64,000 nucleotides of DNA from a virus (IMGVR_UViG_3300027887_000560); one strand, 5' to 3'; shown: positions 29,898 through 53,423, counted from the first letter of the stretch. Program-made: numbers and translations. Notes: generated by a model not told the origin, from the sequence alone.

Positions 29898-29935
29898 CTT
29901 TCATATCTGGGTCACCGGGAGACAAGGAGAACAGG

Positions 29936-31657: not shown

Positions 31658-32158
31658 ATGTTGCCGTTCAACGATGCCGCCAGGCAGGCGTTCCTGGCCT
31701 TCTTCACCAAGCCGGCGATCTCCGAGCCGTTGTCGGCCGAGCTGGCGCAGATCCCCGAGATCTATCGTGAGTGTCTGGCAATCGAGGCGTTCTTCATCAC
31801 GCTGGGCGTGGAGCCGGACGATCTATCCCTGGGCGTGACGGCCAGAAATCCGGAAGACGGCGAGGGTAGCGATCTGATCATGGTGGCGAAGCTGGAGCCC
31901 CGTTCGATGGTGATACGGGTCGCGCCCCTGGTGAACGATTTCGATTTCGAGGTCATAAGGGCGGGCTGGACGAAGGCCACCGAGATCTGGAACCGGGCTT
32001 CGCGCGAGGACAAGAACCGGTTGGTCGTGCAGTCGGATTCCTTCGAGGATTTTCCAACCTTCCTGGAGGCCGCTGCTGACAGCAACATCGTGTTTCCGGC
32101 GATGATCGACTACCTGGTGAAATTGCGGAGTCTCCAGTATCGGGGAGCGCGCAACTAA
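31658..32158 (+). CDS. hypothetical protein (166 aa)
   Basis: Internal Met after upstream stop. Confidence 0.35.
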   Translation: MLPFNDAARQAFLAFFTKPAISEPLSAELAQIPEIYRECLAIEAFFITLGVEPDDLSLGVTARNPEDGEGSDLIMVAKLEPRSMVIRVAPLVNDFDFEVIRAGWTKATEIWNRASREDKNRLVVQSDSFEDFPTFLEAAADSNIVFPAMIDYLVKLRSLQYRGARN

Positions 32159-32167
32159 GGGGGCAAC

Positions 32168-33283
32168 ATGGCAAGAATCGTGTTCTGGCTTGGCTCGGCG
32201 TTCGAGTCCTGGGATCCGCGCACCGCGATCCAGAGAGACGGCATCGGTGGTTCGGAAACCGCCGCCATTCGCATGGCGCAAGAGCTGGCGGCGCTCGGGC
32301 ATGCTGTCGAGGTCTATGCGGACATTCCCGTGCAGGATGTGAGCCTGGGGGTTGCCTGGTTGCCGTATCGTCAGGTGTTGACGAGCTTGAGCGCGGGCAG
32401 AAAGATCGAGTGCGACCTGTTCGTGTCCTCGCGGGTTGCCGAGGCCCGGTACCGACTCGCGCCGAACTGTCGTCGAGCGTGGCTCTGGATGCACGATCTG
32501 CACTGCGGTCCCGACTGGGAAAACCTGATCGGCACCTCGTATGACCGGATCCTGTGCCTGTCGGAATGGGCGCGAAACAAGTTCTTGAACACCTATCCGG
32601 GTGTGGATGAGGCGCGTGTGGTCCTGAGTCGGAACGGTGTGGATCCGGTGCGGTTCCAGGAGCACGATGATCTGCGGCCAGGTGCGCAGCATGCTCGCTT
32701 GCTCGCCGGCCGGCAGCCGCTCACGGCGATCTACTCTTCGTCGCCCGATCGCGGTCTCGATCGGTTGCTGGATCTCTGGCCGCAGGTCAGTGCGCTCTGG
32801 CCTGGTTCGTTGCCGGCGGTCTTGAATGTCTACTACGGGTTCGACAACTGGAAGAAGCTGACCACTCGCCGCGACAACGGCTACATTGAGGAGCAGCGTA
32901 TCGCCGTGCTTGAAGCCAGGCTGGCCCGGACACCTGGAGTTGTTGTTCACGGGCGCGTCGGGCAGGTCGAGCTGGCGCGAGCGTTCCTGAATTCGCATCT
33001 GTGGCTCTATCCAACAGAGTTTCCCGAGATCTCCTGTATCACAGCCATGGAAGCCCAGATGGCGGGTTGCAAGATCGTGGCAACCAGGTTCGCGGCCTTG
33101 CCGGAGACGGCCCCGAGCGCCTGGTTCGTCGATCCACCGATCCGAACGTCCAAGTACGAGCAGGACTTCATCGCGGCCGTGCGCGAGGCGCTCGCCGACG
33201 ATACAGCCATTGTCGGCGGTGAGAACCTGTGGAGCTGGGCGCGAGTCGCCCGGCAGTGGGATGAATGGATTGCAATGGGTTGA
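32168..33283 (+). CDS. GT-B glycosyltransferase (GT4-like)
   Basis: C-terminal E-x7-E motif region EFPEISCITAMEAQMAGCKIVAT; N-terminal GIGGSETAA. Confidence 0.6.
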   Translation: MARIVFWLGSAFESWDPRTAIQRDGIGGSETAAIRMAQELAALGHAVEVYADIPVQDVSLGVAWLPYRQVLTSLSAGRKIECDLFVSSRVAEARYRLAPNCRRAWLWMHDLHCGPDWENLIGTSYDRILCLSEWARNKFLNTYPGVDEARVVLSRNGVDPVRFQEHDDLRPGAQHARLLAGRQPLTAIYSSSPDRGLDRLLDLWPQVSALWPGSLPAVLNVYYGFDNWKKLTTRRDNGYIEEQRIAVLEARLARTPGVVVHGRVGQVELARAFLNSHLWLYPTEFPEISCITAMEAQMAGCKIVATRFAALPETAPSAWFVDPPIRTSKYEQDFIAAVREALADDTAIVGGENLWSWARVARQWDEWIAMG

Positions 33284-33777
33284 TCCTGGAGGCAGGAATG
33301 GATGATTTGCGTTTGAGCGATATTCTGAGGCGAAACAGCATGACCGTCACGGCCAGTGCCGTTGCCATCGGCGATGGTGCCTGTGCCGGACCTGGTGAGA
33401 TCGCGCTGTCGGGGCAAGGCAAACAGATCGTCATCTCCAGGACGGGTGTCAGGTGTGCCAGGGGAGGTACCGGGCTCGAAGGTGTGGCGCTGGACAGTGC
33501 CCTGGTCTCGAACGGTGCGCTGATCATGGATCGACTTCGAGACGTGTTCGGTGATCTCGGTGACGCCTCGATCGAGACGCCTGACTGTTCCCTGGCGATC
33601 CGTCCCGACGGCACGGTGCTCATCAACGGCGAGGTGGTTGGTTGCGATCCCAAGATGCCGGGCCGGGCAGCGGGATTCCTGATGCGCATGCTGGGCACAT
33701 CCTTGCAAATACTGTCGGAACAGGTGTCCGGTTTGCACGAGTCCATGTTGCGCAGCAATCCAGGAAACCTGTCATGA
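33265..33777 (+). CDS. hypothetical protein (170 aa)
   Basis: ORF. Confidence 0.3.
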   Translation: MDCNGLILEAGMDDLRLSDILRRNSMTVTASAVAIGDGACAGPGEIALSGQGKQIVISRTGVRCARGGTGLEGVALDSALVSNGALIMDRLRDVFGDLGDASIETPDCSLAIRPDGTVLINGEVVGCDPKMPGRAAGFLMRMLGTSLQILSEQVSGLHESMLRSNPGNLS

Positions 33778-34037
33778 GTTCCCGTCGAACGCTTTCCTTC
33801 TATCTGTTCATGGTGATCTTTCTTGGTGGTTGCCTGAGCAACTTCTGGTTTCTTTGCTGGTGGCTGGCGCTCCTGTCCGACGTGGCTGCGTATGCCGTGG
33901 TTGGCGGGTTCATCAACTGGGTTGGGCAGTTTCATTGTCCCAGGATCGTGCTCTGGTGGTTGCCGATGCTGCTTTTGCCAAAGCTCGACTGGTTGGCGAT
34001 CTTGCGGCTCGGTGGCAAGAAGAAGGAAAAGTCGTGA
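33774..34037 (+). CDS. small membrane protein (87 aa, two TM)
   Basis: FYLFMVIFLGGCLSNFWFLCWWLALL ... WWLPMLLLPKL. Confidence 0.35.
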   Translation: MSSRRTLSFYLFMVIFLGGCLSNFWFLCWWLALLSDVAAYAVVGGFINWVGQFHCPRIVLWWLPMLLLPKLDWLAILRLGGKKKEKS

Positions 34038-34261
34038 AGTCCAGGTGTCCGAAAGGCAAGTCGCGATTCGTGTTCCTGTTGCTCTGGATCGTGCTCATCA
34101 TTTCAGCCGTTTGGCACTACAACGATTGGGTCGCCATCTGGAGCATGGTTGTGACGGGGTATCTGTGGACGGGTTTGTGCATGTGCGGTGTGTGTCGGGT
34201 GGCATCCTGGCGCCTGGTCGTCCTGTGGCTCTACTATCTGCTGGTCGTGCCGGAAAAATGA
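34034..34261 (+). CDS. small membrane protein (75 aa, GTG start)
   Basis: FVFLLLWIVLIISAVW ... VVLWLYYLLVV; GTG start overlapping the previous stop. Confidence 0.3.
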   Translation: MKSRCPKGKSRFVFLLLWIVLIISAVWHYNDWVAIWSMVVTGYLWTGLCMCGVCRVASWRLVVLWLYYLLVVPEK

Positions 34262-34708
34262 GATCATGCCAGGACAGGTGCGTGAGTATGGAGGTCTCAA
34301 ACTCGGGGAGGAGGTACGTGTGCTCGCGCGATCTCTAGCACCGGGGACGGGAAGCCCCTGGATGGTGGCCAAGGTCAGAAGGCTCGGTCCTGCCGGGTTT
34401 CTGGTACGGGGGCTCGCCACCTGTTTTTGCTGGGAAGACGAGAACGTGCGCTGGGTTCGCATCGAAAGGACGGGGCATGATCGAAGACGATGAACCGCTC
34501 GAACTTGTAGCTGTTTCCGGGTATGTCGAGCCGGTCTGCGGGAAGGATATGACCGTGAGCTGTGTGCCGGCGATCTGTCGGAGGGCGCCTGGTCATGATG
34601 GTGAGTGTTCGGTGCTCACCGAGGAGGATTGTCGGATGATCGATGGAGAGGCCAGGGAGATGCTCAAGCGGCTCTTCCCGGATGGTCTGGTTCCATCATG
34701 GTGAGTCC

Positions 34709-35818
34709 ATGCCGCGTCTAGCGCTGAACCTGCTCGTGCTCAACGGTGAGGCCGTGGTACGTCGCTGTCTGGCTTCCGTGGTCGGTGCCATCGATGAGCT
34801 GGTGGTGGTGGATTCCGGATCTTCGGATCGCACGCGGAAGGTTGTCGTCGAGCTGGCCGAATCCATGGCGCTCGACCGGTTTCGTTACGAACGGATGTCG
34901 CCCTTGTCGGACGATTTTTTCACGGATGAACCTGCATCCTATGGTTCCTATGTGCTTTCTGATTTCTCCGGTCGCAGGGTGCTCAAGGACTGGGCCAAGG
35001 CTCGCAACCTGGCGCTCGCCGAGACGAGCGCCGATTACGTTCTCAAGCTCGATGCCGACGACGAGCTGATCTCGCCTCCGGAGAATCTGCGCAAGGCTTG
35101 CGGGTATCTTGACACCTGTCCCGAGAAGCATTTCGTCTTCGCGCCTTATGAGATCTACGACGAGGGCAAGCCGGTTTTCTTGTCGATGCAGTCCCGGCTG
35201 TGGCGTCGGGGCGCGCACACCCGGTGGGTGCAACCCATGCACGAGTATCTGCGCGGCATGCTCGACGATCGGTGCTTGCACGTCGCTCAAGGGATCCGGA
35301 TCCGGGACTGGAAGGATTCTCCGGGGGAGGGTGTGCGCATCCAGCATCGCAACCTCAAGGTGATGCTCTGGCACCACGTCAACCAGCCACGAACCTGGCC
35401 AGGGCACGATGATGCCGTCTGGCTGTTCACCCTGGCAACCGAGGCCGTGGAAAACTTTCCGGCCTGGAGTCGCGAGCTGTTCGCGAGGCTCCTGGCGCGT
35501 TCCGATCATCCGAACCGGACGATGGCCGGAGACTGCTTCTTTCACATCGGCAGGGCGCTCGAAGCCGAGGGCGACCTGGACGGGGCGATGAAAGCGTATC
35601 TCGATGCCGACCTGGCGGGTGTGAGCGACAGGCATCTGCTGGCGCTCATGCGGGCCATTGCCCTGCATCGCCGGCTGGGCACACAGGAATCCGTGGCATG
35701 TCGAGGGCTCACGGAGAAGCTCTTGCAGGTTGCTGGTTGCATGCCTGACGACCCGTTGCCCTTCAATGTAGATCTGCAACCCATCATCGCATTGCGCGAG
35801 GGGTTCAAGAAAGAGTGA
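34709..35818 (+). CDS. family-2-like glycosyltransferase with C-terminal helical/TPR-like domain (paralog of 28054)
   Basis: LLVLNGEAVVRRCLASV...VVVDSGSSDRT, DWAKARN, DxD (LKLDADDELI). Confidence 0.5.
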   Translation: MPRLALNLLVLNGEAVVRRCLASVVGAIDELVVVDSGSSDRTRKVVVELAESMALDRFRYERMSPLSDDFFTDEPASYGSYVLSDFSGRRVLKDWAKARNLALAETSADYVLKLDADDELISPPENLRKACGYLDTCPEKHFVFAPYEIYDEGKPVFLSMQSRLWRRGAHTRWVQPMHEYLRGMLDDRCLHVAQGIRIRDWKDSPGEGVRIQHRNLKVMLWHHVNQPRTWPGHDDAVWLFTLATEAVENFPAWSRELFARLLARSDHPNRTMAGDCFFHIGRALEAEGDLDGAMKAYLDADLAGVSDRHLLALMRAIALHRRLGTQESVACRGLTEKLLQVAGCMPDDPLPFNVDLQPIIALREGFKKE

Positions 35819-36059
35819 TCGTGATGTCGAAGAGCAAGACATTGAAACGGCGAGCAGCGAGATGGCGACGTGCTGCTCTTGAGATCACCTGGCGCTATCG
35901 GCACGGTGTCAAGCTGACAAAGACCATGGAGAAGTTTTTCATGATTGCGTGCCAGTCTTTAGATCTCCTGGAGATTGGCGCCAGGCCCCAGCTCGTGAAC
36001 GACGTGGCGTCCTCGATGCTTTACAGCGATGCCGTGGCCCTGGAAATGGGTTTCCTGCA

Positions 36060-36464
36060 ATGAATGTGAGCTGGCAACATGTTGGAGCCGCGATCTGGTT
36101 TGTCGCAATCCTGGGTCTGGCGGCGACATGGCACTATCACCTGTATCAACAGTATCGGGAGCAGCGGCGCGTGAAGCAACAGGAGAGGCGCAGGGAGATG
36201 GAGGAAGTCTTTCATCGATCCTTGCACGAGGAGATCCCCGAATCTTTCTACCGGGCCATGGTCGCCGAGATCTTGCCCGAACCTTGCCAGGCACCACGAA
36301 CGGAGGAGATCCATGAGCCATCACAAGCGAAAGCGTCCGAAGCATCAGCGAGCCGGCTGCCTCATGTGCAAGCCACAGAAGGACGAGCGAGTCGCCAAGA
36401 GCCCGAAGAACCAGCAACCGAGCGTGCGACGCCGATTGCAGACGACGCGAACCGGGGAGGATGA
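36060..36464 (+). CDS. membrane-anchored hypothetical protein
   Basis: N-terminal TM segment AAIWFVAILGLAA, then a charged region. Confidence 0.35.
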   Translation: MNVSWQHVGAAIWFVAILGLAATWHYHLYQQYREQRRVKQQERRREMEEVFHRSLHEEIPESFYRAMVAEILPEPCQAPRTEEIHEPSQAKASEASASRLPHVQATEGRASRQEPEEPATERATPIADDANRGG

Positions 36465-36467
36465 CTC

Positions 36468-37154
36468 GTGAGTTCGACGGGGCGGGGAGGGAAGCGTTGC
36501 GAGGCTGACTTCTACGAGACGCCCGAGTGGGTGACAGCTCGGTTGCTCGATGTCTGGAAGCCGGGGCGGGACGCCTTGCTCATCGAGCCGGCCGTGGGCA
36601 ACGGCGCCATCATCAAGGCGATGAACAAGCTTCTACCAGATCCCGCTTCGTTCTGGCTGGGTTACGACATCAGGGACATGGCAGTTCATCATCTTTGCCG
36701 CTTTCGTCAGACCGATTTTCTTGCTGACGGTGCACAACTGGCCACGGATCTGACCGAGGTGTGCTGGGGGTTCGCCGAGGAGGGAAAGTCCTTCCGGACC
36801 ATGCATGTCATCACCAATCCGCCGTTCAGCGTGGCGGAAGAGTTCCTGCGCAAGTCGCGGTTGCTCTATCCGACCGCAGATCTGGTGTTCCTGCTCAGGC
36901 TCAACTTCCTGGCGTCGATCGAGCGCTTGCCGCTCTGGCGAGACCTGGGAGTGCCCGACGTGCATGTCTTGCCGAACCGGCCGAGCTTCACGGGTGCGGG
37001 CACCGACTCGTGCGAGTATGCCTGGATGATCTTTCATGCCTGGGCCGAGGTGCCACTCTTGCGCACGCCCAGCCAGGGGTTCTTGACCATCCTACCCGAA
37101 ACGCCGAAGACGGTACGTGCGGCGTGCCGCAAGCACATGATCGAGGATCCATGA
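36468..37154 (+). CDS. N6-adenine/N4-cytosine-type methyltransferase (motif I then NPPF; gamma-like order)
   Basis: Motif I EPAVGNGAII and motif IV HVITNPPFS about 85 aa later. Confidence 0.55.
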   Translation: MSSTGRGGKRCEADFYETPEWVTARLLDVWKPGRDALLIEPAVGNGAIIKAMNKLLPDPASFWLGYDIRDMAVHHLCRFRQTDFLADGAQLATDLTEVCWGFAEEGKSFRTMHVITNPPFSVAEEFLRKSRLLYPTADLVFLLRLNFLASIERLPLWRDLGVPDVHVLPNRPSFTGAGTDSCEYAWMIFHAWAEVPLLRTPSQGFLTILPETPKTVRAACRKHMIEDP

Positions 37155-37540
37155 GCCTGGAGCTGTTGCCTCCTGACCGGGAGCCAGATGCCGACGAGAA
37201 CGATCGGCTGGGCGAGCGTCTGGAGAAGCTCGAAGCCTGCGTCGAGGCCATGAAGGAAGATCTGGTCGATGTTTGCGAGACCTTGCAGGCGTTGCTCGAC
37301 TACCTCGATATCGATCGTTACGAGTACGAGCTGTTCAAGCAGACTGGCAGCCTGCGTTCCTATTCGCGTCGTGTGCCTGGTGCCAGGGAAGCGGAGGCAG
37401 CGAGGCAGAGCGAGGAGCATCGTCTGGAGGCCGAGGAGAAGCAGGTGCGGCGAGATCAGGCGATCGATGAGGCCGTGAAGAAGCTCGACGAGATCATCGT
37501 CGGTATCGTGGCCTTGAATCCCGAGTACGACAACTGCTAG
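37151..37540 (+). CDS. coiled-coil acidic protein (129 aa)
   Basis: ATGA overlap with the methyltransferase; heptad-like sequence. Confidence 0.35.
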   Translation: MSLELLPPDREPDADENDRLGERLEKLEACVEAMKEDLVDVCETLQALLDYLDIDRYEYELFKQTGSLRSYSRRVPGAREAEAARQSEEHRLEAEEKQVRRDQAIDEAVKKLDEIIVGIVALNPEYDNC

Positions 37541-37550
37541 GAAGTGGACG

Positions 37551-38336
37551 ATGCACGAAGGGCAATCGGTTTCGCTGGTCACGGGGGTCATGCGCAGGAC
37601 GCCGAGCTTGCTGGCGGTCCTGCCGACATGGCTTGCGTTGCGAGAGCTGGACGAGATCGTGATCGTGGACTGGGGTGGGGACGCAAGCATGTGCGAAGCC
37701 GTGCGCAGTGCCGGGCTTCGCGATTCGCGCTTGTGCTTCTACAGGGTGCCCGGTGTTTCGTGCTGGGAATTTTCCGCCTGCGCGAATCTGGGGATCAGCG
37801 TGGCCGTGGGCGAGCGGATCCTTCGCACGGATGTTGATGTGGCGTTTGCGCCGGGGTTCTTTGCGGATCTGCCCCTGGTGTCCGATGAATTCTGGACCGG
37901 GTACTGGGGCCAGGCTCGGGATCACAACGAGTGTCATCTGAACGGCACGATCTACACACATCGCGAGAGCTTCCTGGTCGTGAACGGTTACAACGAGCGG
38001 CTGGTCGGCTACGGTTACGACGACGAAGATCTCTATGCGCGGCTCTGTGCCCAGGGATTCGGGCGCCGGTTCCTGGATCACGATCTGATGCGACATCTTC
38101 CGCACGGGGACGATCTCAGGGTGAGCTGTGCTCCGGAGATCCCGATTCGCGAGGACGTGCGGTTGCTGGTTCCATCGGTCGATAACGCAACATGTTCCCA
38201 GCAGCTCGAACGTTCCAACACCTACAACCGCAAGCTGGCGAATGTGCAGCCCTGGACGGTACAGGATCGGAGAGCTATCTGGACCGTGGCTCACATGGAT
38301 GATGGATTCTGGTACTGTCAGAGGCGAGCACGATGA
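37551..38336 (+). CDS. GT-A glycosyltransferase, paralog 1 (Glyco_transf_7C-like C-terminal motif)
   Basis: SLVTGVMRR...LPTWLALRELDEIVIVDWGG; DxD (RTDVDVAF); VVNGYNERLVGYGYDDEDLYARL. Confidence 0.55.
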   Translation: MHEGQSVSLVTGVMRRTPSLLAVLPTWLALRELDEIVIVDWGGDASMCEAVRSAGLRDSRLCFYRVPGVSCWEFSACANLGISVAVGERILRTDVDVAFAPGFFADLPLVSDEFWTGYWGQARDHNECHLNGTIYTHRESFLVVNGYNERLVGYGYDDEDLYARLCAQGFGRRFLDHDLMRHLPHGDDLRVSCAPEIPIREDVRLLVPSVDNATCSQQLERSNTYNRKLANVQPWTVQDRRAIWTVAHMDDGFWYCQRRAR

Positions 38337-39163
38337 TTGACGGGCACACGGTCACGATCGCCACCGGTTCCATGAACCGGCTCGATCATCTGTGCAAGGC
38401 CCTGCCGACCTGGCTTGCCCGGCCCGAGGCCGACGAGATCTTGATCGTGGACTGGGGCTCCGAGCCCTTGCTCGCCGAGTCCTTGATGTCGTTCCAAGAT
38501 CGCAGGCTTCGCATCGCTCGGGTGTCAAATTGTCGGTACTGGGAGAACGCTCGCTGTCACAACCTGGAATTTCGACTGGCCAGGGGCGACCTGCTGCTAC
38601 GTCTCGACAACGACCACCTGCTGCATGACGATTTCTTCGCGCAGCATCCGATGGCTCCAGGGAGCTTCTACGCTGGTAACTGGCGCAAGGTGCCCTTTTC
38701 CGAGAGCGAGAAGCGCAACCTGTCGGGGATCCTGTGGACATGGCGCGAGGCCCTGCGAACCGTGAATGGGTACAACGAACGACTCGTTCATTTTGGAGTC
38801 GAGGACGATGACCTGTACGAGCGTCTGGCGGCATCGGGGCTCGAACGCCGGGACATCTCGATCTGGTCGGCCGATCACCTGCACCATTCCGATGTCGCGC
38901 GCTACCGGAATCTGCGCATCGCGGCCGAGCACCCCGAGATCGTGGACAACAGCAAGCGTTCCTGGGATGAATGCCGGGACGACTTCTCCGTGGCGAAGCG
39001 TCAGATCTTGGAGATCAGCCTGCAAGAGAACGCGCAAAGGCCGTGGACCACACGCGACCGGATGACCCGATGGGTTCGTCGGGATATCGATTCCCGGTTC
39101 GTCATGATCGTTGAAGACTTGCCCGGACGCACTGTTTGTGATGGAGAGGAAGTGATAACATGA
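38333..39163 (+). CDS. GT-A glycosyltransferase, paralog 2
   Basis: TIATGSMNRLDHL...LPTWLARPEADEILIVDWGS; DND; TVNGYNERLVHFGVEDDDLYERL. Confidence 0.55.
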   Translation: MIDGHTVTIATGSMNRLDHLCKALPTWLARPEADEILIVDWGSEPLLAESLMSFQDRRLRIARVSNCRYWENARCHNLEFRLARGDLLLRLDNDHLLHDDFFAQHPMAPGSFYAGNWRKVPFSESEKRNLSGILWTWREALRTVNGYNERLVHFGVEDDDLYERLAASGLERRDISIWSADHLHHSDVARYRNLRIAAEHPEIVDNSKRSWDECRDDFSVAKRQILEISLQENAQRPWTTRDRMTRWVRRDIDSRFVMIVEDLPGRTVCDGEEVIT

Positions 39164-40215
39164 CCGCCGTGCTCGCACCTCCGAAGTTCCTGTTTCCCTA
39201 CGTCAACCTGGAATGCAACCTGCGCTGTCTGCACTGCATGCGCTGGCAAGATTACGATCCCAAGCCGGAGGCGAGGATCACGATCGATCGGATCTGCGAG
39301 ATCACCGAGGAGTTCGCCGAGCTGGCTCCGGGCGCTGGAGTGGTGATCTGTGGCGGGGAGACCCTGCTGGCCTGGGACGACTATTTCCAGCTCTGCGCAT
39401 GCTGTCGTCGGCTGGGGCTTCACAGCTATTCGGTCACGAACGGCATGCTCGTCGATACGACGGACATCGCCGAGTACATGATGTGTGAAGGCCCGGACGA
39501 GATCACCGTGTCGCTCGATAGCCCCGACGAGGTCATTCACGACCGGTTGCGCGGGAAGAAGGGTTCCTATCAGGCGGCGGTGCGGGCGCTGCGCCTCCTG
39601 GTAGCGGCGCGCAGGATGACCGGACATCTCGACGATCGTCGGGTGTATGCCATGGGGCTCATCTGTGACGTGAATTACAAGGACATGGATCGCTTCTACG
39701 ATCTCGTGCTGCGCGACATCGGGGCGGACAAGCTCAAGTGCAACCCCTTGCAGCCCACCTGCGAGATCAGACCTGGTGCCGGAGATCGCTTCTTCGCGGA
39801 GCACGTCCGGGTGCCGCCAGAGGAGTTCATGGAGATCATGCGGGCGTGCGACGTGAAGTACAAGCTCGGGCTCGATCCTGAATGGATAAGGCACATGGGC
39901 GTGTACTTCCGCGCGTTCGAGCGCAATTACCAGTTGCTCGGTGGCTGGGGCGCCGGAGCCAGGACGCGCGAGCACATCTGCAACACTCACGATCGGAACA
40001 TCATGGTGGATCTGAAAGGCACGGCCCGGCTCTGTTTCTCGACGAAGTATCCGGGCATGCCGCTGGTCGAACGGGGCGATCTGCGCCGGTTCTGGGAGCG
40101 TCCGGAGACCGAGGCGCTGCGCGAGCAGATGCGGCAGTGCAACGACGTGTGCGGTGTGAGCCACAGTGTTCGACGCGTGAACGCAACCTTGAAACCCTCG
40201 AAGGTGACACCATGA
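39160..40215 (+). CDS. radical SAM enzyme with C-terminal auxiliary-cluster (SPASM/twitch-like) cysteines
   Basis: CxxxCxxC at residues about 17-24 (CNLRCLHC); GGEtLL (ICGGETLL); C-terminal Cys set (CNTHD..., RLCFSTKY, QCNDVCGVSH). Confidence 0.75.
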   Translation: MTAVLAPPKFLFPYVNLECNLRCLHCMRWQDYDPKPEARITIDRICEITEEFAELAPGAGVVICGGETLLAWDDYFQLCACCRRLGLHSYSVTNGMLVDTTDIAEYMMCEGPDEITVSLDSPDEVIHDRLRGKKGSYQAAVRALRLLVAARRMTGHLDDRRVYAMGLICDVNYKDMDRFYDLVLRDIGADKLKCNPLQPTCEIRPGAGDRFFAEHVRVPPEEFMEIMRACDVKYKLGLDPEWIRHMGVYFRAFERNYQLLGGWGAGARTREHICNTHDRNIMVDLKGTARLCFSTKYPGMPLVERGDLRRFWERPETEALREQMRQCNDVCGVSHSVRRVNATLKPSKVTP

Positions 40216-41204
40216 ACTATCGTTGCAAGCGAGCGCAGGGGTACCTGGAGATCTTTCACGGCGGCGACGTGTGGCTCTGCTGTCCGAACTGGACGGGTGG
40301 GCCACTCGGTAACATCCTGCGGGACGATCTGCTGACCTTGTGGCGCGGACCGCGTGCCCGGCGAATCCGGGAAGGGATCGCCAAGGGCGATTTTTCGTTG
40401 TGCCAGAAGTGCTCGTACTTGCCGGCACCGTTCGGTCCCATCGAGATTGCGGACAGCGGCGTGGTGACCGAGGTCGATCGTATTCCCAACCTGTTCGTGG
40501 CGTTCGATCGAACGTGCAACCTTTGCTGTCCCACCTGTCGTCACGAGATCTGGAAGTATCCCTGGGGCAACGATCGTGAGGTGCGCCGGCTCTACGACCG
40601 GTTGCTTTCGTCCGGAGCACTGGCCGAGGTCGATCGCATACGATTCCTGTCGAGCGGTGATCCGATGGCCTCGTCGCTTTGCCAGGAGACCCTGCGTCGG
40701 CTGCCGTGGCAAAGCTACCCGGTCTTGCGGTTGCATTTCCAGACGAACGGGCTCCTGTTCACGCCCGAGCGTTACCAGGCGATGGGTGAGGCGGCCACGC
40801 GACTCGATTCGGTGTCCGTGTCCATCGACGCCGCTACCCGGCAAACCTACGCCCTGAATCGATCGCGGGGCAACCTGGCTTCCTGGGACGTGCTCCAGGA
40901 GAACCTGCATTTCATCTCCGGGCTCAAGCAATCCGGTGCCCTGCAACACTTCGTGCTGGTATGCGTGGTCCAGGCCAACAACTTCCGGGAGATGGTCATG
41001 TTTGCCGAGCAAGCGTTCGCCCTGGGCGCGGGCGCCGAGTACATGATGATGTTCAACTGGGGCACGTTCTCGGATGCCGAGTTCGCGGAGCGCGCCGTGC
41101 ATTTGCCCGGTCATCCCGATCACGCCGAGTTTCTTGAGGTTCTGGGCAACCCGATCTTCTCGGATCCACGCATCATCATGAGCAATTTCCTGGGACGACC
41201 ATGA
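40212..41204 (+). CDS. second radical SAM-like enzyme
   Basis: FDRTCNLCCPTCRH (C-x3-C-x2-C) about 100 aa in; N-terminal Cys-rich segment CKRAQGYLEIFHGGDVWLCCPNWTGG. Confidence 0.5.
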   Translation: MNYRCKRAQGYLEIFHGGDVWLCCPNWTGGPLGNILRDDLLTLWRGPRARRIREGIAKGDFSLCQKCSYLPAPFGPIEIADSGVVTEVDRIPNLFVAFDRTCNLCCPTCRHEIWKYPWGNDREVRRLYDRLLSSGALAEVDRIRFLSSGDPMASSLCQETLRRLPWQSYPVLRLHFQTNGLLFTPERYQAMGEAATRLDSVSVSIDAATRQTYALNRSRGNLASWDVLQENLHFISGLKQSGALQHFVLVCVVQANNFREMVMFAEQAFALGAGAEYMMMFNWGTFSDAEFAERAVHLPGHPDHAEFLEVLGNPIFSDPRIIMSNFLGRP

Positions 41205-41839
41205 GTGAAGGTGCAATCGAGCGACCATGCACCTGGCAGGACGTGCCGGGCTACTTCGACTTCAACGATCTCTATTTCGAGATGGTCAGCAAGGCGCCAG
41301 CCTCCGGTGCGCGCTTCGTGGAGATCGGGGTGCTGTTCGGGCGCTCGACCATGTTCATGGCCAGCGAGATCAAGCGCAGCGGCAAGCAGATAACGTTCGA
41401 TGCCATCGATCGCTATGCACACGATCGTCAGGCATGGACCACGGAGTTCGATTCCCTGGTTGCCAAGATGTCTCCCGAGCGCGCAGCGGTCGCGCGGAGA
41501 GCGGTTGCACCTGGAACCCTGCTCAACGAGGTTCCGTTCTACTTTGCCCTGAAAGCCGGGCTTCATGACCATGTGAATCTCATCTGCGATCTCGCGCAAG
41601 AGCAAGCTCGTCTCTATGCCGACGGCAGCCTGGATTTCGTGTTCATCGATGACGATCATCAGTATCGGGAGACCAAGGAACTCATCCAGGCTTACTTGCC
41701 CAAGATCAAGGTCGGGGGGATCATCGCCGGGCATGACTTCACCTTCGTCTGGCCTGGCGTGATCAGGGCGGTCAACGAGGTCTTCGGTCGCAATCGTCGC
41801 ATCCGCAAGAATTGCTGGGTTCACGTCAGGGAATCTTGA
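41201..41839 (+). CDS. class I SAM-dependent methyltransferase (Methyltransf_24/CmcI-like), paralog A
   Basis: WQDVPGYFDFNDLY...FVEIGVLFGRST...FVFIDDDHQY...GGIIAGHD. Confidence 0.55.
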   Translation: MSEGAIERPCTWQDVPGYFDFNDLYFEMVSKAPASGARFVEIGVLFGRSTMFMASEIKRSGKQITFDAIDRYAHDRQAWTTEFDSLVAKMSPERAAVARRAVAPGTLLNEVPFYFALKAGLHDHVNLICDLAQEQARLYADGSLDFVFIDDDHQYRETKELIQAYLPKIKVGGIIAGHDFTFVWPGVIRAVNEVFGRNRRIRKNCWVHVRES

Positions 41840-41850
41840 AGGGGGCTGAC

Positions 41851-42084
41851 ATGGTCAAACTGGTTGATGCTAACACGGGGAAAGTCGTCGAGGTCGGACA
41901 GCGGGTGGAGTGTGTCACGCCCTACGAGATCCTGAGTGTGCGCGACCTGATCTTCATCGTCTGGGTCAGGTTGAAGATTTCGGAGGTCGAGCGGTGGGTT
42001 CAGTGCCCGGTCAAATGGTGGCCCAGGCTCACCTATGGGGTGTCCTTCCCCACGAGCGGACGCACGGCAATCATTCCATCCTGA
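41851..42084 (+). CDS. hypothetical small protein (77 aa)
   Basis: ORF following methyltransferase A. Confidence 0.3.
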   Translation: MVKLVDANTGKVVEVGQRVECVTPYEILSVRDLIFIVWVRLKISEVERWVQCPVKWWPRLTYGVSFPTSGRTAIIPS

Positions 42085-42105
42085 AACCCTGGAGTTCGAG
42101 CGGGC

Positions 42106-42840
42106 ATGCACGAAAACTTGCGCGTTTCCCTGGCGACCGGTTGCATGAATCGTCTTGACAGCTTGCGCTGGGCGCTTCCTTCCTGGCTCGCGTTGCCGGA
42201 GATCGACGAGATCGTCATCGTGGACTGGAGTTCGCAGACGCCCGTGCACGAGGCGCTTGCCGACGTGTCCGATCCTCGTGTGCTCTTCGTCCGGGTCGAG
42301 GGACAGTCCTACTGGTGCGCGGCCAGGTGCCACAACGTCGAGGTGCTGGCGGCCACGGGAGATGCCCTGCTGCGCATCGATGCTGACATCAGGGTCAAGT
42401 CGGGGTTCTTTGGAGCCCATCATTCACTGGCCCGCGAGCACGTCTTCTGGAACACCTGGTGGCGGCTGGCGCGTGATAACGAAGATCTGCACCTGGCAGG
42501 CACCATCTACACACGACGCTCGAACTTTCTGCTGGTCGGCGGGTACAACGAGCGACTCGCGTCCTATGGCTACGAGGACGACGATCTGTATCAACGGTTG
42601 CTCATCGCCCGGCGCAAGCGTGGCTTTCTTCGTCGTGAAGATCTGGAGCACCTGCCCCACGCCGATGCGACCCGCATGGCTCAGATCGCGCCCGAGTTCC
42701 GGGGACGGGGGATCCCGATCGAGGGTATCGGCAGGAATCAGCAGATCGCCAAGGACACACCCTGGACGGCGAACGATCGCATGACGACCTGGAGGGTTTG
42801 CAGGGTCGCGCACAATCTCTGGAGATACACACAGGACTGA
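42106..42840 (+). CDS. GT-A glycosyltransferase, paralog 3
   Basis: VSLATGCMNRLDSL...LPSWLALPEIDEIVIVDWSS; DAD; LVGGYNERLASYGYEDDDLYQRL. Confidence 0.55.
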   Translation: MHENLRVSLATGCMNRLDSLRWALPSWLALPEIDEIVIVDWSSQTPVHEALADVSDPRVLFVRVEGQSYWCAARCHNVEVLAATGDALLRIDADIRVKSGFFGAHHSLAREHVFWNTWWRLARDNEDLHLAGTIYTRRSNFLLVGGYNERLASYGYEDDDLYQRLLIARRKRGFLRREDLEHLPHADATRMAQIAPEFRGRGIPIEGIGRNQQIAKDTPWTANDRMTTWRVCRVAHNLWRYTQD

Positions 42841-42842
42841 TC

Positions 42843-43493
42843 ATGCTCACCTGGCAAGACGTTCCCGGCTACTTCAATTTTCAGGACATCTACACTCGCA
42901 TGGTCGCGGAGGCTCGGGACGACGGCGATCACTTCGTGGAGATCGGGGTGCTGTTCGGGCAGTCAACCCTCTTCATGGCCGACGCCATCAGGCGGAGCGG
43001 CAAGCGCATCGTCTTCGATGCTGTCGATCGGATGTCCTCCGAATCGCGTCCGCAGTGGCGGTACGAGTGCTTGACCCTGAGCCAGAAGTTGTCTTCCGAG
43101 GCTGCCCGAGCAGCGGCGCGCGAGGCGATTGCCTCGTCGCCCTGCATGGCAGACATCTCGAAATGGTACGCCAGGGAAACCGGGCTCGATGGGTTCATCA
43201 ACTTTCATGTCGAGTCGGGGCAAGCGCGCTCCGGTGCGTACAGGGACGAAAGCCTCGGCTTCGTTTTCATCGATTCAGATCACTCTTATGTTGACACCAG
43301 GGAGATGATTCAGGCATATCTATCCAAGGTGCGAACCGGGGGTGTGTTGGCAGGTCATGATTACAACCACGGCGAGTGGCCCGAGGTTGTTCGGGCGGTC
43401 AACGAGACGCTCTGGAACAAGTTCAAGATCATCGGCGACTCCTGGATTTCCAGGAAGCAGGGGCCGGTCAGGCGCTTGTATCTTCCATGGTAA
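42843..43493 (+). CDS. class I SAM-dependent methyltransferase (Methyltransf_24-like), paralog B
   Basis: WQDVPGYFNFQDIY...FVEIGVLFGQST...FVFIDSDHSY...GGVLAGHD. Confidence 0.55.
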   Translation: MLTWQDVPGYFNFQDIYTRMVAEARDDGDHFVEIGVLFGQSTLFMADAIRRSGKRIVFDAVDRMSSESRPQWRYECLTLSQKLSSEAARAAAREAIASSPCMADISKWYARETGLDGFINFHVESGQARSGAYRDESLGFVFIDSDHSYVDTREMIQAYLSKVRTGGVLAGHDYNHGEWPEVVRAVNETLWNKFKIIGDSWISRKQGPVRRLYLPW

Positions 43494-43503
43494 GAGGTGG
43501 AAC

Positions 43504-43725
43504 ATGGCACAGATGACTGGCAATGCGCCGTTCACCATCGAGAATGTCGAGGTCATCATGGATACCGACAAGGCGTTGCTCTGTCGAATCGACGGCATGG
43601 GTGGCCCGGAGGTCTGGCTTCCACGCAAGCTGTTGCTCAGTGGCACGACCGTCGAGTTCAGAGGTGATTTTGGCGAGGTGGTCATTCCCACCTGGCTTGC
43701 CGAAGAGCGTCAGCTCTGGCGTTGA
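43504..43725 (+). CDS. hypothetical small protein (73 aa)
   Basis: ORF following methyltransferase B. Confidence 0.3.
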   Translation: MAQMTGNAPFTIENVEVIMDTDKALLCRIDGMGGPEVWLPRKLLLSGTTVEFRGDFGEVVIPTWLAEERQLWR

Positions 43726-44100
43726 CCTGGACAAGTAGGAGGAGATAGCGGATCATGAGAAGCTCGGAACTGCAAGCGAAGATCGCTGCCATGGAGCCCG
43801 AGGCCAGAACTGCCTTTTTGCGTCGCATGGACGAACTGTTCGCCGAGATCGAGGATCTCGACGAGGCTGGTTATCCTCATACCCGAGATCGGATCTCGGC
43901 TGGCGAGGTCGAAGGAGATCTTCGCCCGTGAACCTGTTCGATCGCTTCCTGGCCAACGTCGGATGGTGCCGGATCGGATGGCACCGGGTGCCGAACAAGG
44001 TCGTCACACGCCGCAGGCCGGTGGACGGCAAGCTCGTGTATCCCTTCTGGAACTGGGAGGGCGTGTGTCGTCGCTGCCATCGCATCATCAAGGGTGTCCA

Positions 44101-44346
44101 ATGACCAGGACCGAGGAAAAAGCGTGGATCAACATGCGCCGTCATCGTGATGCTCTTGCCAAGCTGGCGAGCGAGACCAGGACGGGGTTTTTCACGGAGG
44201 AAGATCGTGAGCCGTCCATGCGACTCGCTGAGCGTTTGCAGGGTGCCGCCAACGGGATAGACCTGGAGATGTTGCGTCTGGAGAGCGGAGATCCATCGCT
44301 CACCGAGCTGGATCGTGCGCGAAAGCGGTTTCTGGAGGCGAAATGA
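44101..44346 (+). CDS. hypothetical small protein (81 aa)
   Basis: Internal Met of ORF 43963..44346. Confidence 0.3.
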   Translation: MTRTEEKAWINMRRHRDALAKLASETRTGFFTEEDREPSMRLAERLQGAANGIDLEMLRLESGDPSLTELDRARKRFLEAK

Positions 44347-44924
44347 AGAAACCCGAGATCTACGTGTCCACCGATGTCGAGGCCAACGGTCCGATACCAG
44401 GTTGCAACTCGATGCTGAGCTTCGCGTCGGCAGCATTCCAGGATGGTGTGCCCGAGCCTATCGGTTGCTTCTCGCGCAATCTTCGGACCCTGCCTGGCTC
44501 GTCGCCAGATCCGGACACGATGGCTTTCTGGGGCAAGCACGCGAAGGCTTTCGAGGAGACGCGCCTCGATGTGGTCGAGGCGAAGGACGCCATGCTTGAC
44601 TATGTTGCATGGTTGGAGAAGTTGCCTGGTAAACCCGTGTTCGTTGGTTATCCCGCCAGCTACGACTTCATGTTTGTCTACTGGTACCTGATACGATTCG
44701 CTGGAAAGAGTCCCTTTTCGTTCTCGGCCCTCGACATCAAGAGCTATGCCATGGCCATCCTGGGAACAACGTACAAGGATGCGTCCAAGCGCAAGATGCC
44801 CAAAGATTGGTTCGTATCCCTGCCTAAACATCGACATGTGGCGCTCGACGATGCCATCGAGCAGGGAAAGCTGTTCCTGAACATCATGGCTCACGGACGG
44901 TTGCAAAGGGCGGTGTCGCTGTGA
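44343..44924 (+). CDS. DEDDh 3'-5' exonuclease (DnaQ/Rv2179c-like)
   Basis: IYVSTDVEANGPIPG (D-x-E), YDFMFVYWY, and HVALDDAIEQ (H-x-D) motifs. Confidence 0.55.
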   Translation: MKKPEIYVSTDVEANGPIPGCNSMLSFASAAFQDGVPEPIGCFSRNLRTLPGSSPDPDTMAFWGKHAKAFEETRLDVVEAKDAMLDYVAWLEKLPGKPVFVGYPASYDFMFVYWYLIRFAGKSPFSFSALDIKSYAMAILGTTYKDASKRKMPKDWFVSLPKHRHVALDDAIEQGKLFLNIMAHGRLQRAVSL

Positions 44925-45117
44925 GCGCGGAGCGAAGCACGACTCTGCCACCAGGACCATGGCTCATGCCGCCACGTTTCCGGGGCGGGTGTCATTCCGA
45001 TTCCGACGGTGATTGCGATTGGCCGGATTGTCCCCAGTTGCGTGATGGTGAGCCCGAGAAGACCGGCCGTAGTTGTCCACTCTATCCGTGGCATCATGAG
45101 GGGGATCAGGGGAAGCG

Positions 45118-45888
45118 ATGAAATTCGGTGTCGTCATACCGTCACGACTGGCCCTGCGGCCCGGCGGGCGTGTGCTCGGCAATCACGGCCCCGAGCTGTG
45201 GCTGGACGGTGCCGTCGCGAGCGTGCTCGGGCAGCGTGATTTCAACACCACCGACTGGGAGATCTACATCGGTGTGGATCCGATGGCGGTCGTGCCGGCG
45301 CGGTTCTACGAGCACGCGACCGTGGTGCAGGCCGCGCGAGCCGGGCAAGCGTTCGCCGTGAATGCCGCTGCCGAGCTGGCGGTTTTGCATGCCGACGTGA
45401 TCGCCATTCTCGAAGACGACGATCGCTGGCGGCCTGAGAAGACGGAGGTCCAGCTCACGCATCTCGGGGATGCATCGTTCGTGAGCTGTTCACAGAGGCT
45501 CCACGATGTCGAGGGTCTTGCGACGGGGAACGTGGTCCACTATCCATCACCCTCGGGCTGGCTCATGACGGCCGCGCTCTGGAACGCGTTGCGGGGGTTC
45601 GATCCGAGCTATCGCTGGTTGCTCGACATGGAGTGGCTGGGACGCTTGAACCAGTTGCGAAGACGAAGGGTTCACGTCACGTCGAATCACATTCAAGCCG
45701 GGTACGGGCTCGTGGAGGTGAGTCATTATGCCGCCGTGGCCACCTATGAAAGTCCGCTTTTCCTCGTCGAACGCACAATCAATCCCCAGGGCGGCATGAT
45801 GATGGCGCAGGAGGATCCGGAAGCTGAACGTGAGGCTCGCGACGAGGAAAACAGGATTCTCAAGGCGTTCGGGTACAAGCCCTGGTAG
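45118..45888 (+). CDS. family-2 glycosyltransferase
   Basis: VVIPS...LDGAVASVLGQ N-terminal pattern and DxD (ILEDDD). Confidence 0.5.
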   Translation: MKFGVVIPSRLALRPGGRVLGNHGPELWLDGAVASVLGQRDFNTTDWEIYIGVDPMAVVPARFYEHATVVQAARAGQAFAVNAAAELAVLHADVIAILEDDDRWRPEKTEVQLTHLGDASFVSCSQRLHDVEGLATGNVVHYPSPSGWLMTAALWNALRGFDPSYRWLLDMEWLGRLNQLRRRRVHVTSNHIQAGYGLVEVSHYAAVATYESPLFLVERTINPQGGMMMAQEDPEAEREARDEENRILKAFGYKPW

Positions 45889-53118: not shown

Positions 53119-53423
53119 GACTGTTATTCTTGCTGCCAGATCTCCTGGTTCCGGTTCTGCTTTTCACCGAGATCGTGATCCCTCTATGGCGAGGCACGAG
53201 GCTCTTTCCCGTGCTCAGGGGAGCGTTTCGACTCGTCACGTACATTTTCACCAACCCCATCAAGACCGTTCTCCACCCCTCCAAGGAACGGTTGCGACGG
53301 GCCGAGGTACGCCTGCAAGCCGCCAAGGCCGATGCCGTGGCGGCCCAGCTTGAACACCAAGCCGAGGCGCTCGAAGACAGAGCCAACCAACTCCGTGAGG
53401 GACGAACAGGAGAGCCGAGATGA
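53115..53423 (+). CDS. small membrane protein plus coiled coil (102 aa)
   Basis: MRLLFLLPDLLVPVLLFTEIVIPLW. Confidence 0.3.
   Translation: MRLLFLLPDLLVPVLLFTEIVIPLWRGTRLFPVLRGAFRLVTYIFTNPIKTVLHPSKERLRRAEVRLQAAKADAVAAQLEHQAEALEDRANQLREGRTGEPR

Follow-up and report, generated by a model that had tools for sequence, protein, structure and literature searches.

The DNA stretch that was analyzed (the window, 64,000 nucleotides) is part of IMGVR_UViG_3300027887_000560, a large, virus-like and uncultured element found in wetland sediment, and the same element is also present in wetland metagenomes. The window encodes a PolB of the protein-primed type (DNA_pol_B_2), a HerA/FtsK-type ATPase (HerA/DUF87), ThyX and a CHAP domain, and Shine-Dalgarno-like (SD-like) sites were found. 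IMG/VR lists one relative, a 194-kb contig with a PolB that is 90% identical. The element is best explained as virus-like, with a prokaryotic host and replication by a protein-primed polymerase, and the lineage, with this PolB and the 194-kb relative, is uncharacterized so far.

The interval under study (37551-43725) contains, on the plus strand, two GT-A glycosyltransferase genes, two radical-SAM genes (rSAM1 and rSAM2), a methyltransferase gene (MT24a), an ORF of 77 aa (s1), a third GT-A gene, a second methyltransferase gene (MT24b) and an ORF of 73 aa (s2). ORF and Pfam analyses verified this order, which had been predicted originally, and also the overlap of several genes at ATGA, which occurs at four junctions (38333, 39160, 40212 and 41201). 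Four further glycosyltransferase genes flank the interval (Table 1).

Table 1. Genes of the interval and flanking glycosyltransferase genes
Gene	Position	Strand	Description	Evidence
GT-A1	37551-38336	+	Glycosyltransferase, accessory module	Glyco_transf_7C 2.1e-9 and Glyco_tranf_2_2, above cut-off; DxD
GT-A2	38333-39163	+	Glycosyltransferase, accessory module	Glyco_transf_7C 7.6e-11 and Glyco_tranf_2_2; ATGA overlap on both sides
rSAM1	39160-40215	+	Radical-SAM with C-terminal four-Cys twitch-like domain	Radical_SAM 67.7 bits
rSAM2	40212-41204	+	Radical-SAM with N-terminal twitch/SPASM domain	SPASM 40.1 bits, aa 5-67; Radical_SAM 27.7 bits, aa 100-222
MT24a	41201-41839	+	Class I SAM-dependent methyltransferase	Methyltransf_24 68.6 bits, 9.9e-19; Methyltransf_3
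s1	41851-42084	+	77-aa protein	SD-like site upstream; no Pfam or PHROG match
GT-A3	42106-42840	+	Glycosyltransferase, conserved (core) copy	Glyco_tranf_2_2 and Glyco_transf_7C
MT24b	42843-43493	+	Methyltransferase, accessory	Methyltransf_24 59.4 bits, 7.1e-16
s2	43504-43725	+	73-aa conserved protein adjoining GT-A3	Weak phrog_8389 match; no Pfam match
GT + TPR	28054-29322	+	Conserved island, outside interval	TPR Pfam matches; PHROG beta-1,4-glycosyltransferase
GT4/GT1-type (GT-B)	32168-33283	+	Conserved island	Glyco_transf_4, Glyco_trans_1_4
GT2 + helical C-terminal domain	34643-35818	+	Candidate protein-priming glycosyltransferase	Glycos_transf_2 1.4e-13
GT2-like	45118-45888	+	Conserved island	Glycos_transf_2 4.3e-4, below cut-off

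The three GT-A proteins belong to the inverting glycosyltransferases of the GT-A fold, GT2/GT7-like families (PF10111, PF02709); all of them exceed the Pfam cut-offs and carry a DxD and a GT7-type motif. They are paralogs, as had been claimed, with mutual identities of 38-46%, an invariant D94xD96 and a GYNERL...G.(E/D)D(D/E)DLY motif that is kept in all three, and the intact DxD argues against decayed duplicates. Their weak PDB matches are beta4GalT1 and beta4GalT7. The paralogy of the two methyltransferases was likewise verified (47% identity). Both belong to Methyltransf_24 (PF13578), far above the cut-off of 26.3 bits, and share the motifs FVEIGVLFG (motif I), a D(D/S)DH stretch within FVFID(D/S)DH, and AGHD. 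Weak PDB matches to CCoAOMT-type O-methyltransferases suggest that MT24a is probably a metal-dependent O-methyltransferase.

The radical-SAM proteins fall into the radical SAM superfamily (PF04055), with a CX3CX2C motif, a GGE-type motif and a partial TIM-barrel core. In both enzymes CX3CX2C and the SAM-binding GGE or SGDP motifs are intact, so that a loss of these motifs does not apply. An extra Cys-rich domain places them in the SPASM/twitch subgroup. Twitch domains carry one and SPASM domains two auxiliary [4Fe-4S] clusters, and the domain is normally C-terminal. The first enzyme had been described as SPASM-like, but the Pfam SPASM match lies in the second one, at its N-terminus, and rSAM1 has a C-terminal four-Cys twitch-like region that is not called by Pfam. 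Of the classes that had been considered, SPASM/twitch thus holds; a B12-binding domain was found in neither rSAM1 nor rSAM2, and they are not class B (GenK-like) methylases.

In rSAM1 the CX3CX2C motif starts at residue 19. The nearest solved structure is BlsE (PDB 7vob), with an identity of only 17% and a lead over other structures that is small, as peptide maturases are close in Z (SuiB 19.3, SkfB 19.0, anSME 18.2). BlsE is the cytosylglucuronate decarboxylase of the blasticidin S pathway and acts on a sugar nucleoside, whereas rSAM1 represents a distinct and strongly conserved family whose members have about 350 aa. The best PDB profile match of rSAM2 is BtrN (8e-11), the 2-deoxy-scyllo-inosamine dehydrogenase of the butirosin pathway, which has a carbohydrate substrate. 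Core and twitch both align, including the auxiliary-cluster cysteines, but the N-terminal domain of rSAM2 aligns to the C-terminal twitch of BtrN, i.e., the layout is BtrN-like and permuted. The AF2 model of rSAM2 has a pLDDT of 92, and C23, C24, C64, C67, C102, C106, C109 and G149 are invariant in its family. NCBIfam NF033640 (N_Twi_rSAM), which we take to have the same unusual order of an N-terminal twitch followed by the radical-SAM core, does not include rSAM2 (32.6 bits versus a cut-off of 170). Two further twitch radical-SAM sugar enzymes, HygY and NeoN, are epimerases with carbohydrate substrates (see references in PMC10991966).

Comparison with relatives revealed which genes of the interval are variable. 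The 194-kb relative keeps only GT-A3 and the 73-aa ORF, and therefore GT-A1, GT-A2, rSAM1, rSAM2, MT24a and MT24b form an accessory module within a glycosyltransferase island that is conserved. Together with contig L011 it retains the GT + TPR, the GT4, the GT2 + TPR, one GT-A and the GT2 gene, and has no rSAM or MT gene. A 71.7-kb relative has the complete cassette, with rSAM2 duplicated. The conserved genes have orthologs: GT + TPR in L006 (72%) and L011 (55%), GT4 (72%) and GT2 + helical domain (65%) in the 194-kb relative, and the GT2-like gene in the 194-kb relative (79%) and L011 (47%). The locus had been called a duplicated cassette, which is overstated. The DNA repeats are only 60-76% identical and confined to motif-coding stretches, and every GT-A groups with its respective ortholog on other contigs. 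GT-A1 has an ortholog on the 71.7-kb relative (P0187, 56%) and none on the 194-kb relative, GT-A2 groups with P0184 and P0185 as a separate clade, and the ortholog of GT-A3 (74%) is the sole GT-A of the 194-kb relative. Because the identity among the GT-A and MT paralogs is only 38-47% and every GT-A has an ortholog of its own in related elements, the interval is an accretion of old paralogs and not the result of a recent duplication.

The neighborhoods of rSAM2 homologs repeatedly included glycan enzymes. Two records (L041 and L128) contain an ORF of 578 aa in which rSAM2 is fused to MT24 (Rosetta-stone fusion), and both also encode Sulfotransfer_2, FucT, GT-A, rSAM1, MT24 and five rSAM2 copies. 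Some ten contigs from peat or wetland carry the toolkit as well. A Sulfotransfer_2 (ST2) gene is adjacent to rSAM2 in L122, L125, L128 and L150, and both co-occur on L123; L122 additionally has two GT10 fucosyltransferases, Sulfotransfer_3 and a Galactosyl_T match. A Sulfotransfer_3 homolog is present in 8 of the 45 rSAM2-family loci of at least 8 kb. Cellular rSAM2 homologs lie near GT4 and GT2 (L121), near a nucleotide-sugar dehydrogenase, GT25 and a second GT (a Paracoccus plasmid), and near GT2, a PAPS-synthesis gene (ATP-sulfurylase + APS-kinase) and sulfotransferases (Pyrinomonadaceae). Judged by the fusion and the gene neighborhoods, rSAM2 appears to pair with a group transferase that would cap the altered sugar, namely MT24 in this element and a sulfotransferase in its relatives. 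A point against is that the rSAM2 copies with MT24 partners and those with ST2 partners did not form separate clades.

Based on these results, it is reasonably probable that the interval belongs to a glycosylation island as its variable part with a tailoring role. In this island the conserved glycosyltransferases build a glycan that is likely protein-linked, and the accessory block adds and modifies sugars. The prediction that a mobile, virus-like element carries a toolkit for making and tailoring sugars or glycans is thereby strengthened, by the glycan-enzyme partners as well as by PolB and the HerA/FtsK-type ATPase. The conserved set (two GT2 + TPR, GT4, GT-A3 and GT2) would build the glycan, for which a virion or host-envelope protein is the most likely acceptor, and GT-A1 and GT-A2 would add further sugars. 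MT24a and MT24b would probably O-methylate sugar hydroxyls, and the two twitch enzymes might abstract a hydrogen from a sugar carbon, leading to a redox-neutral or oxidative change. Epimerization, oxidation to a keto-sugar or decarboxylation of a uronic acid can be proposed as outcomes, and the sugar altered by rSAM2 would then be capped by the partner transferase. The analysis shows which genes are present, their intact motifs, the accessory status of the module, the family relationships, the fusion and the recurring neighborhoods; we infer a glycan rather than a peptide substrate, a protein acceptor and the precise radical chemistry. For the acceptor, the gene at 34643-35818 is informative: among solved structures it is closest to GmaR (7.5e-10), 7msk and SunS, which are protein or peptide glycosyltransferases, and these matches span only about 50 residues in the N-terminal part of the GT2 domain. 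GmaR is the Listeria flagellin O-GlcNAc transferase, and the SunS/ThuS-type enzymes are glycocin S/O-glycosyltransferases; presumably they share with 34643-35818 the layout of a GT2 catalytic plus a helical/TPR domain.

Instead of the virion, the same chemistry could target the host cell surface (its S-layer, LPS or capsule) and serve to exclude superinfecting viruses or to mask receptors, which we regard as rather unlikely. Seroconverting phages remodel the host envelope glycan in this manner. As expected of host-interaction genes, the accessory module differs among close relatives, cellular rSAM2 homologs lie in cell-envelope-type GT clusters, and no capsid gene is linked to the module. However, the about 70 window ORFs that were scanned include no gene for a membrane GT, a flippase or a Gtr-like protein, and the core GT2 + TPR proteins resemble soluble protein or peptide glycosyltransferases; these points fit virion and host proteins equally. 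Nucleotide-sugar biosynthesis genes, which had been suggested as a further check, and an identifiable capsid protein were also absent from the scanned ORFs, which, like the lack of a flippase, weighs against our main reading.

A second alternative is that the radical-SAM enzymes modify residues of the protein that the GTs and MTs decorate, by formylglycine-type oxidation, epimerization or crosslinking. This is improbable, as neither rSAM1 nor rSAM2 has an RRE-type or other leader-binding domain (rSAM2 begins directly with the twitch), all their NCBIfam scores are far below the cut-offs, and rSAM2 is fused to an O-methyltransferase-type domain and paired with carbohydrate sulfotransferases.

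The original prediction had also considered RiPP or glycopeptide maturation, with s1 and/or s2 as precursors. A small ORF does follow each methyltransferase, the radical-SAM enzymes are of the SPASM type, and the core GT2 has a weak match to the SunS family (22.9 bits versus an NCBIfam cut-off of 350). Only the position of the small ORFs stood the analysis, not a shared role: s1 and s2 have no similarity to one another, and their arrangement is a coincidence. The s2 ortholog (79%) directly follows the single GT-A of the 194-kb relative, where rSAM and MT genes are absent, and in the 71.7-kb relative, with its whole cassette, no ORF was called between the MT24 and GT-A genes, i.e., s1 is missing. 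In 80 loci neither was found near other rSAM2-family members. The s1 family is a small folded domain that is found in homologs of 80-98 aa and, repeated in tandem, in larger proteins of 595 and 1106 aa. A protease, a transporter and an RRE were not detected. Because the two small ORFs are neither related to one another nor linked to the radical-SAM genes, which do not qualify as RiPP maturases, this reading is unsupported and very improbable.

It is just as implausible that the GTs, MTs and radical-SAM enzymes hypermodify the viral genome against restriction. ThyX and an N6-adenine-type DNA methyltransferase (phrog_799, 3.8e-36) are encoded nearby, and the PHROG matching MT24 carries the label "DNA methyltransferase". 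However, the 194-kb relative lacks the DNA methyltransferase, and does so independently of the cassette; kinases, hydroxymethylases and base-exchange enzymes of the kind typical for DNA hypermodification did not turn up; and the partners of homologous cassettes are TPR-bearing GTs, GT10 fucosyltransferases and carbohydrate sulfotransferases. That the locus is an ordinary O-antigen or EPS cluster of a bacterial chromosome, misread as mobile, is extremely improbable: its GT, MT and rSAM genes bear a superficial likeness to polysaccharide loci and L041 was binned into an archaeal MAG, but about 64 kb are transcribed in a single direction, most ORFs have no Pfam match, protein-primed PolB and a packaging-type ATPase are present, the relative is listed in IMG/VR, and Wzx, Wzy, an ABC exporter or a priming phosphoglycosyltransferase were not found among about 70 ORFs across the window.

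Virus-encoded glycosylation is present in giant viruses and some phages. The PBCV-1 protein A064R combines two GT domains with a methyltransferase, and chlorovirus capsid glycans contain methylated rhamnose; mimivirus has clusters for fibril glycosylation, and mycobacteriophages glycosylate capsid and tail. The term "virion glycosylation" is used for phages in the literature. The tailoring island described here shares with these systems virus-encoded GT-A/GT-B enzymes and sugar methyltransferases in clusters that vary between relatives, but it has a prokaryotic host. To our knowledge, none of them combines radical-SAM enzymes, sulfotransferases and fucosyltransferases in this way, and radical-SAM enzymes have not been described in virus glycosylation; a literature search turned up no report of such a combination in virion glycosylation. 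In its logic, though with unrelated enzyme families, the putative pairing of rSAM2 with MT24 or ST2 is analogous to heparan and dermatan sulfate synthesis, where a C5-epimerase is paired with a 2-O-sulfotransferase (epimerize, then sulfate): a modifier acts with a capping transferase.

The gene fusion and the recurrent neighborhoods link two uncharacterized radical-SAM families to glycan enzymes and make them concrete candidates for new anaerobic sugar-tailoring reactions. Our reading of the acceptor is a guess. The results suggest modular glycan decoration (methyl, sulfate, fucose) in large protein-primed viruses of wetland and peat soils, which, if true, would matter for the recognition of hosts and for how stable particles are in anoxic sediments. 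As a speculative extension with a low probability, the rSAM2 family might be a new class of glycan-level epimerases or oxidases that act on sugars already built into a glycan, in modify-and-cap pairs with interchangeable methyl- and sulfotransferases, and a new lineage of very large protein-primed prokaryotic viruses (up to about 190 kb) might use arrays of as many as five copies per element to diversify a methylated, sulfated or fucosylated particle coat.

The locus also offers a functional lead for the bacterial family of rSAM1, a widespread one with 198 genome matches and many species, whose members mostly stand alone in Alphaproteobacteria and other bacteria. In 79 of 80 genome loci the homologs had no MT24 or rSAM2 neighbor, a weak GT-A match was seen in only one other locus (L117) among the 80, and of three contexts that were inspected, two had no relation to glycans. 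The cellular role of the rSAM1 family may therefore differ from its role here.

In the segment 37551-43725, nine co-directional ORFs were called, and the calls bear out the predicted order of three glycosyltransferases (GT-A1 to GT-A3), two radical-SAM enzymes (rSAM1 and rSAM2), two Methyltransf_24-type methyltransferases (MT24a and MT24b) and two small ORFs (s1 and s2). Neighboring genes overlap at ATGA at four junctions, and the remaining gaps are 2-21 nt long. A scan for promoters and terminators revealed no such sites above chance expectation, and thus spacing and scan are compatible with, but no proof of, a single long transcript. The GT-A proteins share 38-46% identity, and the DxD as well as the GYNERL...G.(E/D)D(D/E)DLY motif are invariant in all three. 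MT24a and MT24b are 47% identical, and both retain motif I, the acidic D(D/S)DH stretch and AGHD. Also the radical-SAM motifs are intact, and there is no sign of decayed duplicates, which the original prediction had considered. It had furthermore labeled the first radical-SAM enzyme as SPASM-like; the Pfam match was in fact found in the second.

Features of the cassette and of the surrounding window
Feature	Coordinates	Strand	Remarks
DnaJ-like protein	3383-4024		zinc-finger domain
HerA/FtsK-type ATPase	14438-16318
Protein-primed family-B polymerase (PolB)	18267-20381		DNA_pol_B_2
PolB-exo-like 3'-5' exonuclease/nuclease	24392-25234
CHAP-domain peptidase	25231-25719
ThyX	29840-30892		350 aa as listed
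Glycosyltransferase GT2+TPR	34643-35818
N6-adenine-type DNA methyltransferase	36468-37154		NPPF motif
Coiled-coil-like protein (g37151)	37151-37540
GT-A1	37551-38336	+	glycosyltransferase
GT-A2	38333-39163	+	glycosyltransferase
rSAM1	39160-40215	+	CX3CX2C and GGE
rSAM2	40212-41204	+	CX3CX2C and SGDP; Pfam SPASM match N-terminal
MT24a	41201-41839	+	methyltransferase
s1	41851-42084	+	77 aa
GT-A3	42106-42840	+	glycosyltransferase
MT24b	42843-43493	+	methyltransferase
s2	43504-43725	+	73 aa
RtcB RNA ligase	51563-52729
SPFH/Band-7 protein	53420-54655
TSCPD-domain protein	61813-62343

The view that the cassette had been duplicated was not supported. DNA repeats within it are only 60-76% identical and restricted to motif-coding stretches. 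In the GT-A tree each protein clusters with its own orthologs on other contigs, showing that the paralogs are old, and rSAM1 and rSAM2 belong to different families that are related in the core only (hhalign E-value 1e-7, 17% identity). A recent tandem duplication was therefore rejected. GT-A homologs (about 30-35% identity) were also seen on low-GC contigs labeled as giant-virus MAGs (L012, L013, L017 and L020 from IMG/VR GVMAG) and on many other viral contigs, in each case without radical-SAM and methyltransferase partners.

The window genes were compared by tblastn with the syntenic part of a relative, a 194-kb IMG/VR contig with a 90% identical PolB. Orthologs were present for GT+TPR (28054), ThyX, GT4 (32168), GT2+TPR, g37151, GT-A3 (74%), s2 (79%), the exonuclease (44343) and GT2 (45118), and GT-A1, GT-A2, rSAM1, rSAM2, MT24a, s1 and MT24b were all absent from this part. 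The same reduced island was found in a second relative (L011). The complete cassette is present in a 71.7-kb relative, where rSAM2 occurs in duplicate and an ORF between MT24a and GT-A3 was not called. The cassette is therefore an accessory tailoring module within a conserved glycosyltransferase island; the conserved backbone includes s2 but not s1, which is dispensable. The island extends over 28054-45888, and its accessory block over 37551-42084 and 42843-43493.

In rSAM2 the twitch/SPASM domain lies N-terminal to the radical-SAM core. The conserved residues are C5, C23, C24, C64 and C67, followed by C102/C106/C109 and G149. The best match of the family profile was BtrN (8e-11); the cores align, and the N-terminal domain of rSAM2 aligns to the C-terminal twitch domain of BtrN, which indicates a circular-permutation-like rearrangement. 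rSAM2 is not a member of the NCBIfam family N_Twi_rSAM (32.6 bits versus a cut-off of 170). Each of the two radical-SAM enzymes is predicted to hold two [4Fe-4S] clusters.

The rSAM1 family is tightly conserved, with about 50% identity across the full length; besides the SAM-cluster motif, four C-terminal cysteines are invariant. When genomes of 185,579 species were scanned, 198 matches were obtained, in Alphaproteobacteria (Xanthobacter, Rhodoplanes, Erythrobacter), Holophaga, Verrucomicrobiota, Planctomycetota and others; no plasmid homolog was found in PLSDB. No consistent genomic partner in bacteria emerged from 80 loci, in 79 of which neither an MT24 nor an rSAM2 homolog adjoined the gene; a weak GT-A3-like match was confined to one of these 79 loci (L117). 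Among three contexts that were inspected, one was glycan-related (Paralimibaculum, with GT2 genes and a flippase-type protein) and two were unrelated to glycans. In two bacteria, a PF00144 gene (serine beta-lactamase/transpeptidase fold) directly adjoins a radical-SAM homolog, of rSAM2 in the first and of rSAM1 in the second (L007 11047-12024; L040 9127-11037), which could be a coincidence or a further shared partner.

The sole exception among the 80 rSAM1 loci was a 27-kb contig binned in a Conexivisphaerales MAG, labeled as an archaeon (L041, DATKKG010000078.1). A metagenome contig of 151 kb (L128, Ga0335069_10000097) represents the same element. This element encodes GT+TPR, five paralogs of the N-twitch enzyme rSAM2, GT-A, Sulfotransfer_2, FucT, rSAM1 and MT24, and on both contigs rSAM2 and MT24 are also fused in a single ORF of 578 aa, located at 8256-9992 on L041. 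Five other ORFs of L041 were scanned and had no Pfam match. L041 probably represents a mobile or viral element and not an archaeal chromosome. It has nothing in common with the window beyond the cassette genes and the GT+TPR gene.

Another locus, L122, contains GT-A, two GT10 fucosyltransferases, an rSAM1 homolog, Sulfotransfer_3, a Galactosyl_T-like protein, and a Sulfotransfer_2 gene between two rSAM2 genes. When metagenomes were scanned with the rSAM2 profile, additional contigs from peat and wetland were found that carry parts of this toolkit, and in these the adjacencies Sulfotransfer_2-rSAM2 and rSAM2-MT24 recur. Distant cellular rSAM2 homologs also sit in glycan-type neighborhoods: beside sulfotransferases, a PAPS-synthesis gene (ATP-sulfurylase and APS-kinase domains) and GT2 genes in a Pyrinomonadaceae MAG, amid GT4 and GT2 genes in L121, and next to GT25, another glycosyltransferase and a nucleotide-sugar dehydrogenase on a Paracoccus zhejiangensis plasmid. 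A Sulfotransfer_3 homolog was near the rSAM2 homolog in 8 of the 45 loci of at least 8 kb. A split of rSAM2 into methyltransferase-partnered and sulfotransferase-partnered clades was rejected by the tree, in which the two kinds of copies are not separated. The window copy is nearest to the copies flanking the Sulfotransfer_2 gene of L122, and thus the partner transferase seems to be interchangeable.

Both GT10 fucosyltransferases and Sulfotransfer_2 enzymes belong to families specific for carbohydrates. These partners and the MT24 fusion argue that the substrates of the radical-SAM enzymes are sugars or glycans and not peptides. The prediction of a mobile element with a toolkit for sugar tailoring is supported. 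Genes for nucleotide-sugar synthesis were not detected among the window ORFs scanned; presumably, nucleotide sugars of the host would be used and diversified either following transfer or immediately before it. In analogy to BtrN, to HygY and NeoN (both referenced in PMC10991966) and to BlsE, the radical-SAM enzymes would most likely abstract hydrogen from a sugar carbon, leading to epimerization, oxidation or decarboxylation. For HygY, mutants are reported to switch from epimerase to dehydrogenase. Purely hypothetically, the altered sugar would then be capped with methyl or sulfate. Literature searches linking radical SAM to glycans, sulfotransferases and viruses yielded nothing relevant. Viral glycosylation islands are already known; the present one has in addition two uncharacterized twitch-type radical-SAM families, one of which combines a permuted BtrN-like architecture with a fusion link to a methyltransferase.

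The conserved GT2+TPR protein is most similar to GmaR, a flagellin O-GlcNAc transferase, and to the 7msk and SunS entries, which are glycocin-type peptide glycosyltransferases. This similarity makes a protein acceptor for the glycan plausible. The glycan could be destined for particles or for the host envelope, and one of the radical-SAM enzymes might modify the acceptor protein instead of the sugar. Hypermodification of DNA by the cassette is unlikely, in view of the glycan-specific partners in homologous cassettes.

The small ORFs had been considered as possible precursor peptides of the cassette enzymes, i.e., a RiPP pathway. Their distribution contradicts this proposal. s1 and s2 are similar neither to each other nor to the small ORF 3' of rSAM2 in L122, and neither was found in 80 rSAM2 loci. 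In an exhaustive search s1 turned out to be a small domain family, sometimes repeated within large proteins, and the radical-SAM enzymes lack an RRE domain. The precursor idea was therefore rejected. Three to seven tandem repeats of the s1 domain occur in proteins of 595 and 1106 aa (P0244, P0250).

The GC content of the whole 64-kb window is about 60%, and almost all plausible genes are on the + strand. Shine-Dalgarno-like motifs precede most genes, and thus the host is a prokaryote; the CHAP-domain peptidase suggests a host with peptidoglycan. The search for tRNAs in the window was negative. The identical element was found in several wetland-sediment metagenomes. Among isolated viruses, Methanosarcina spherical virus and tectiviruses have the most similar PolB, with only 25-28% identity. 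To our knowledge, the 194 kb of the relative (L006, L010) are far above the size of known protein-primed prokaryotic viruses (tectiviruses, MetSV, phi29-like phages). Most other window ORFs had no family match. Candidate structural ORFs had no Pfam or PHROG matches, so that capsid protein and virus family could not be identified that way, and no capsid, portal or terminase family was recognized. Based on gene content, wetland recurrence, the 194-kb relative and the distant PolB, the element is an uncharacterized virus-like lineage, and this context excludes a chromosomal O-antigen or EPS locus of the host.

In ThyX the Thy1 domain begins at residue 59, and the start differs between gene callers (141 aa versus 318 aa, two assemblies); the protein may be extended at the N-terminus, or its start may be mis-called. 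The DNA methyltransferase just upstream of the cassette matched phrog_799 (3.8e-36) and no Pfam family; it is absent from the 194-kb relative and is found elsewhere in L011. The coiled-coil-like protein directly upstream of GT-A1 had a sub-threshold match to DUF7518 (24.4 bits versus a cut-off of 27) and is kept in the 194-kb relative (52%).
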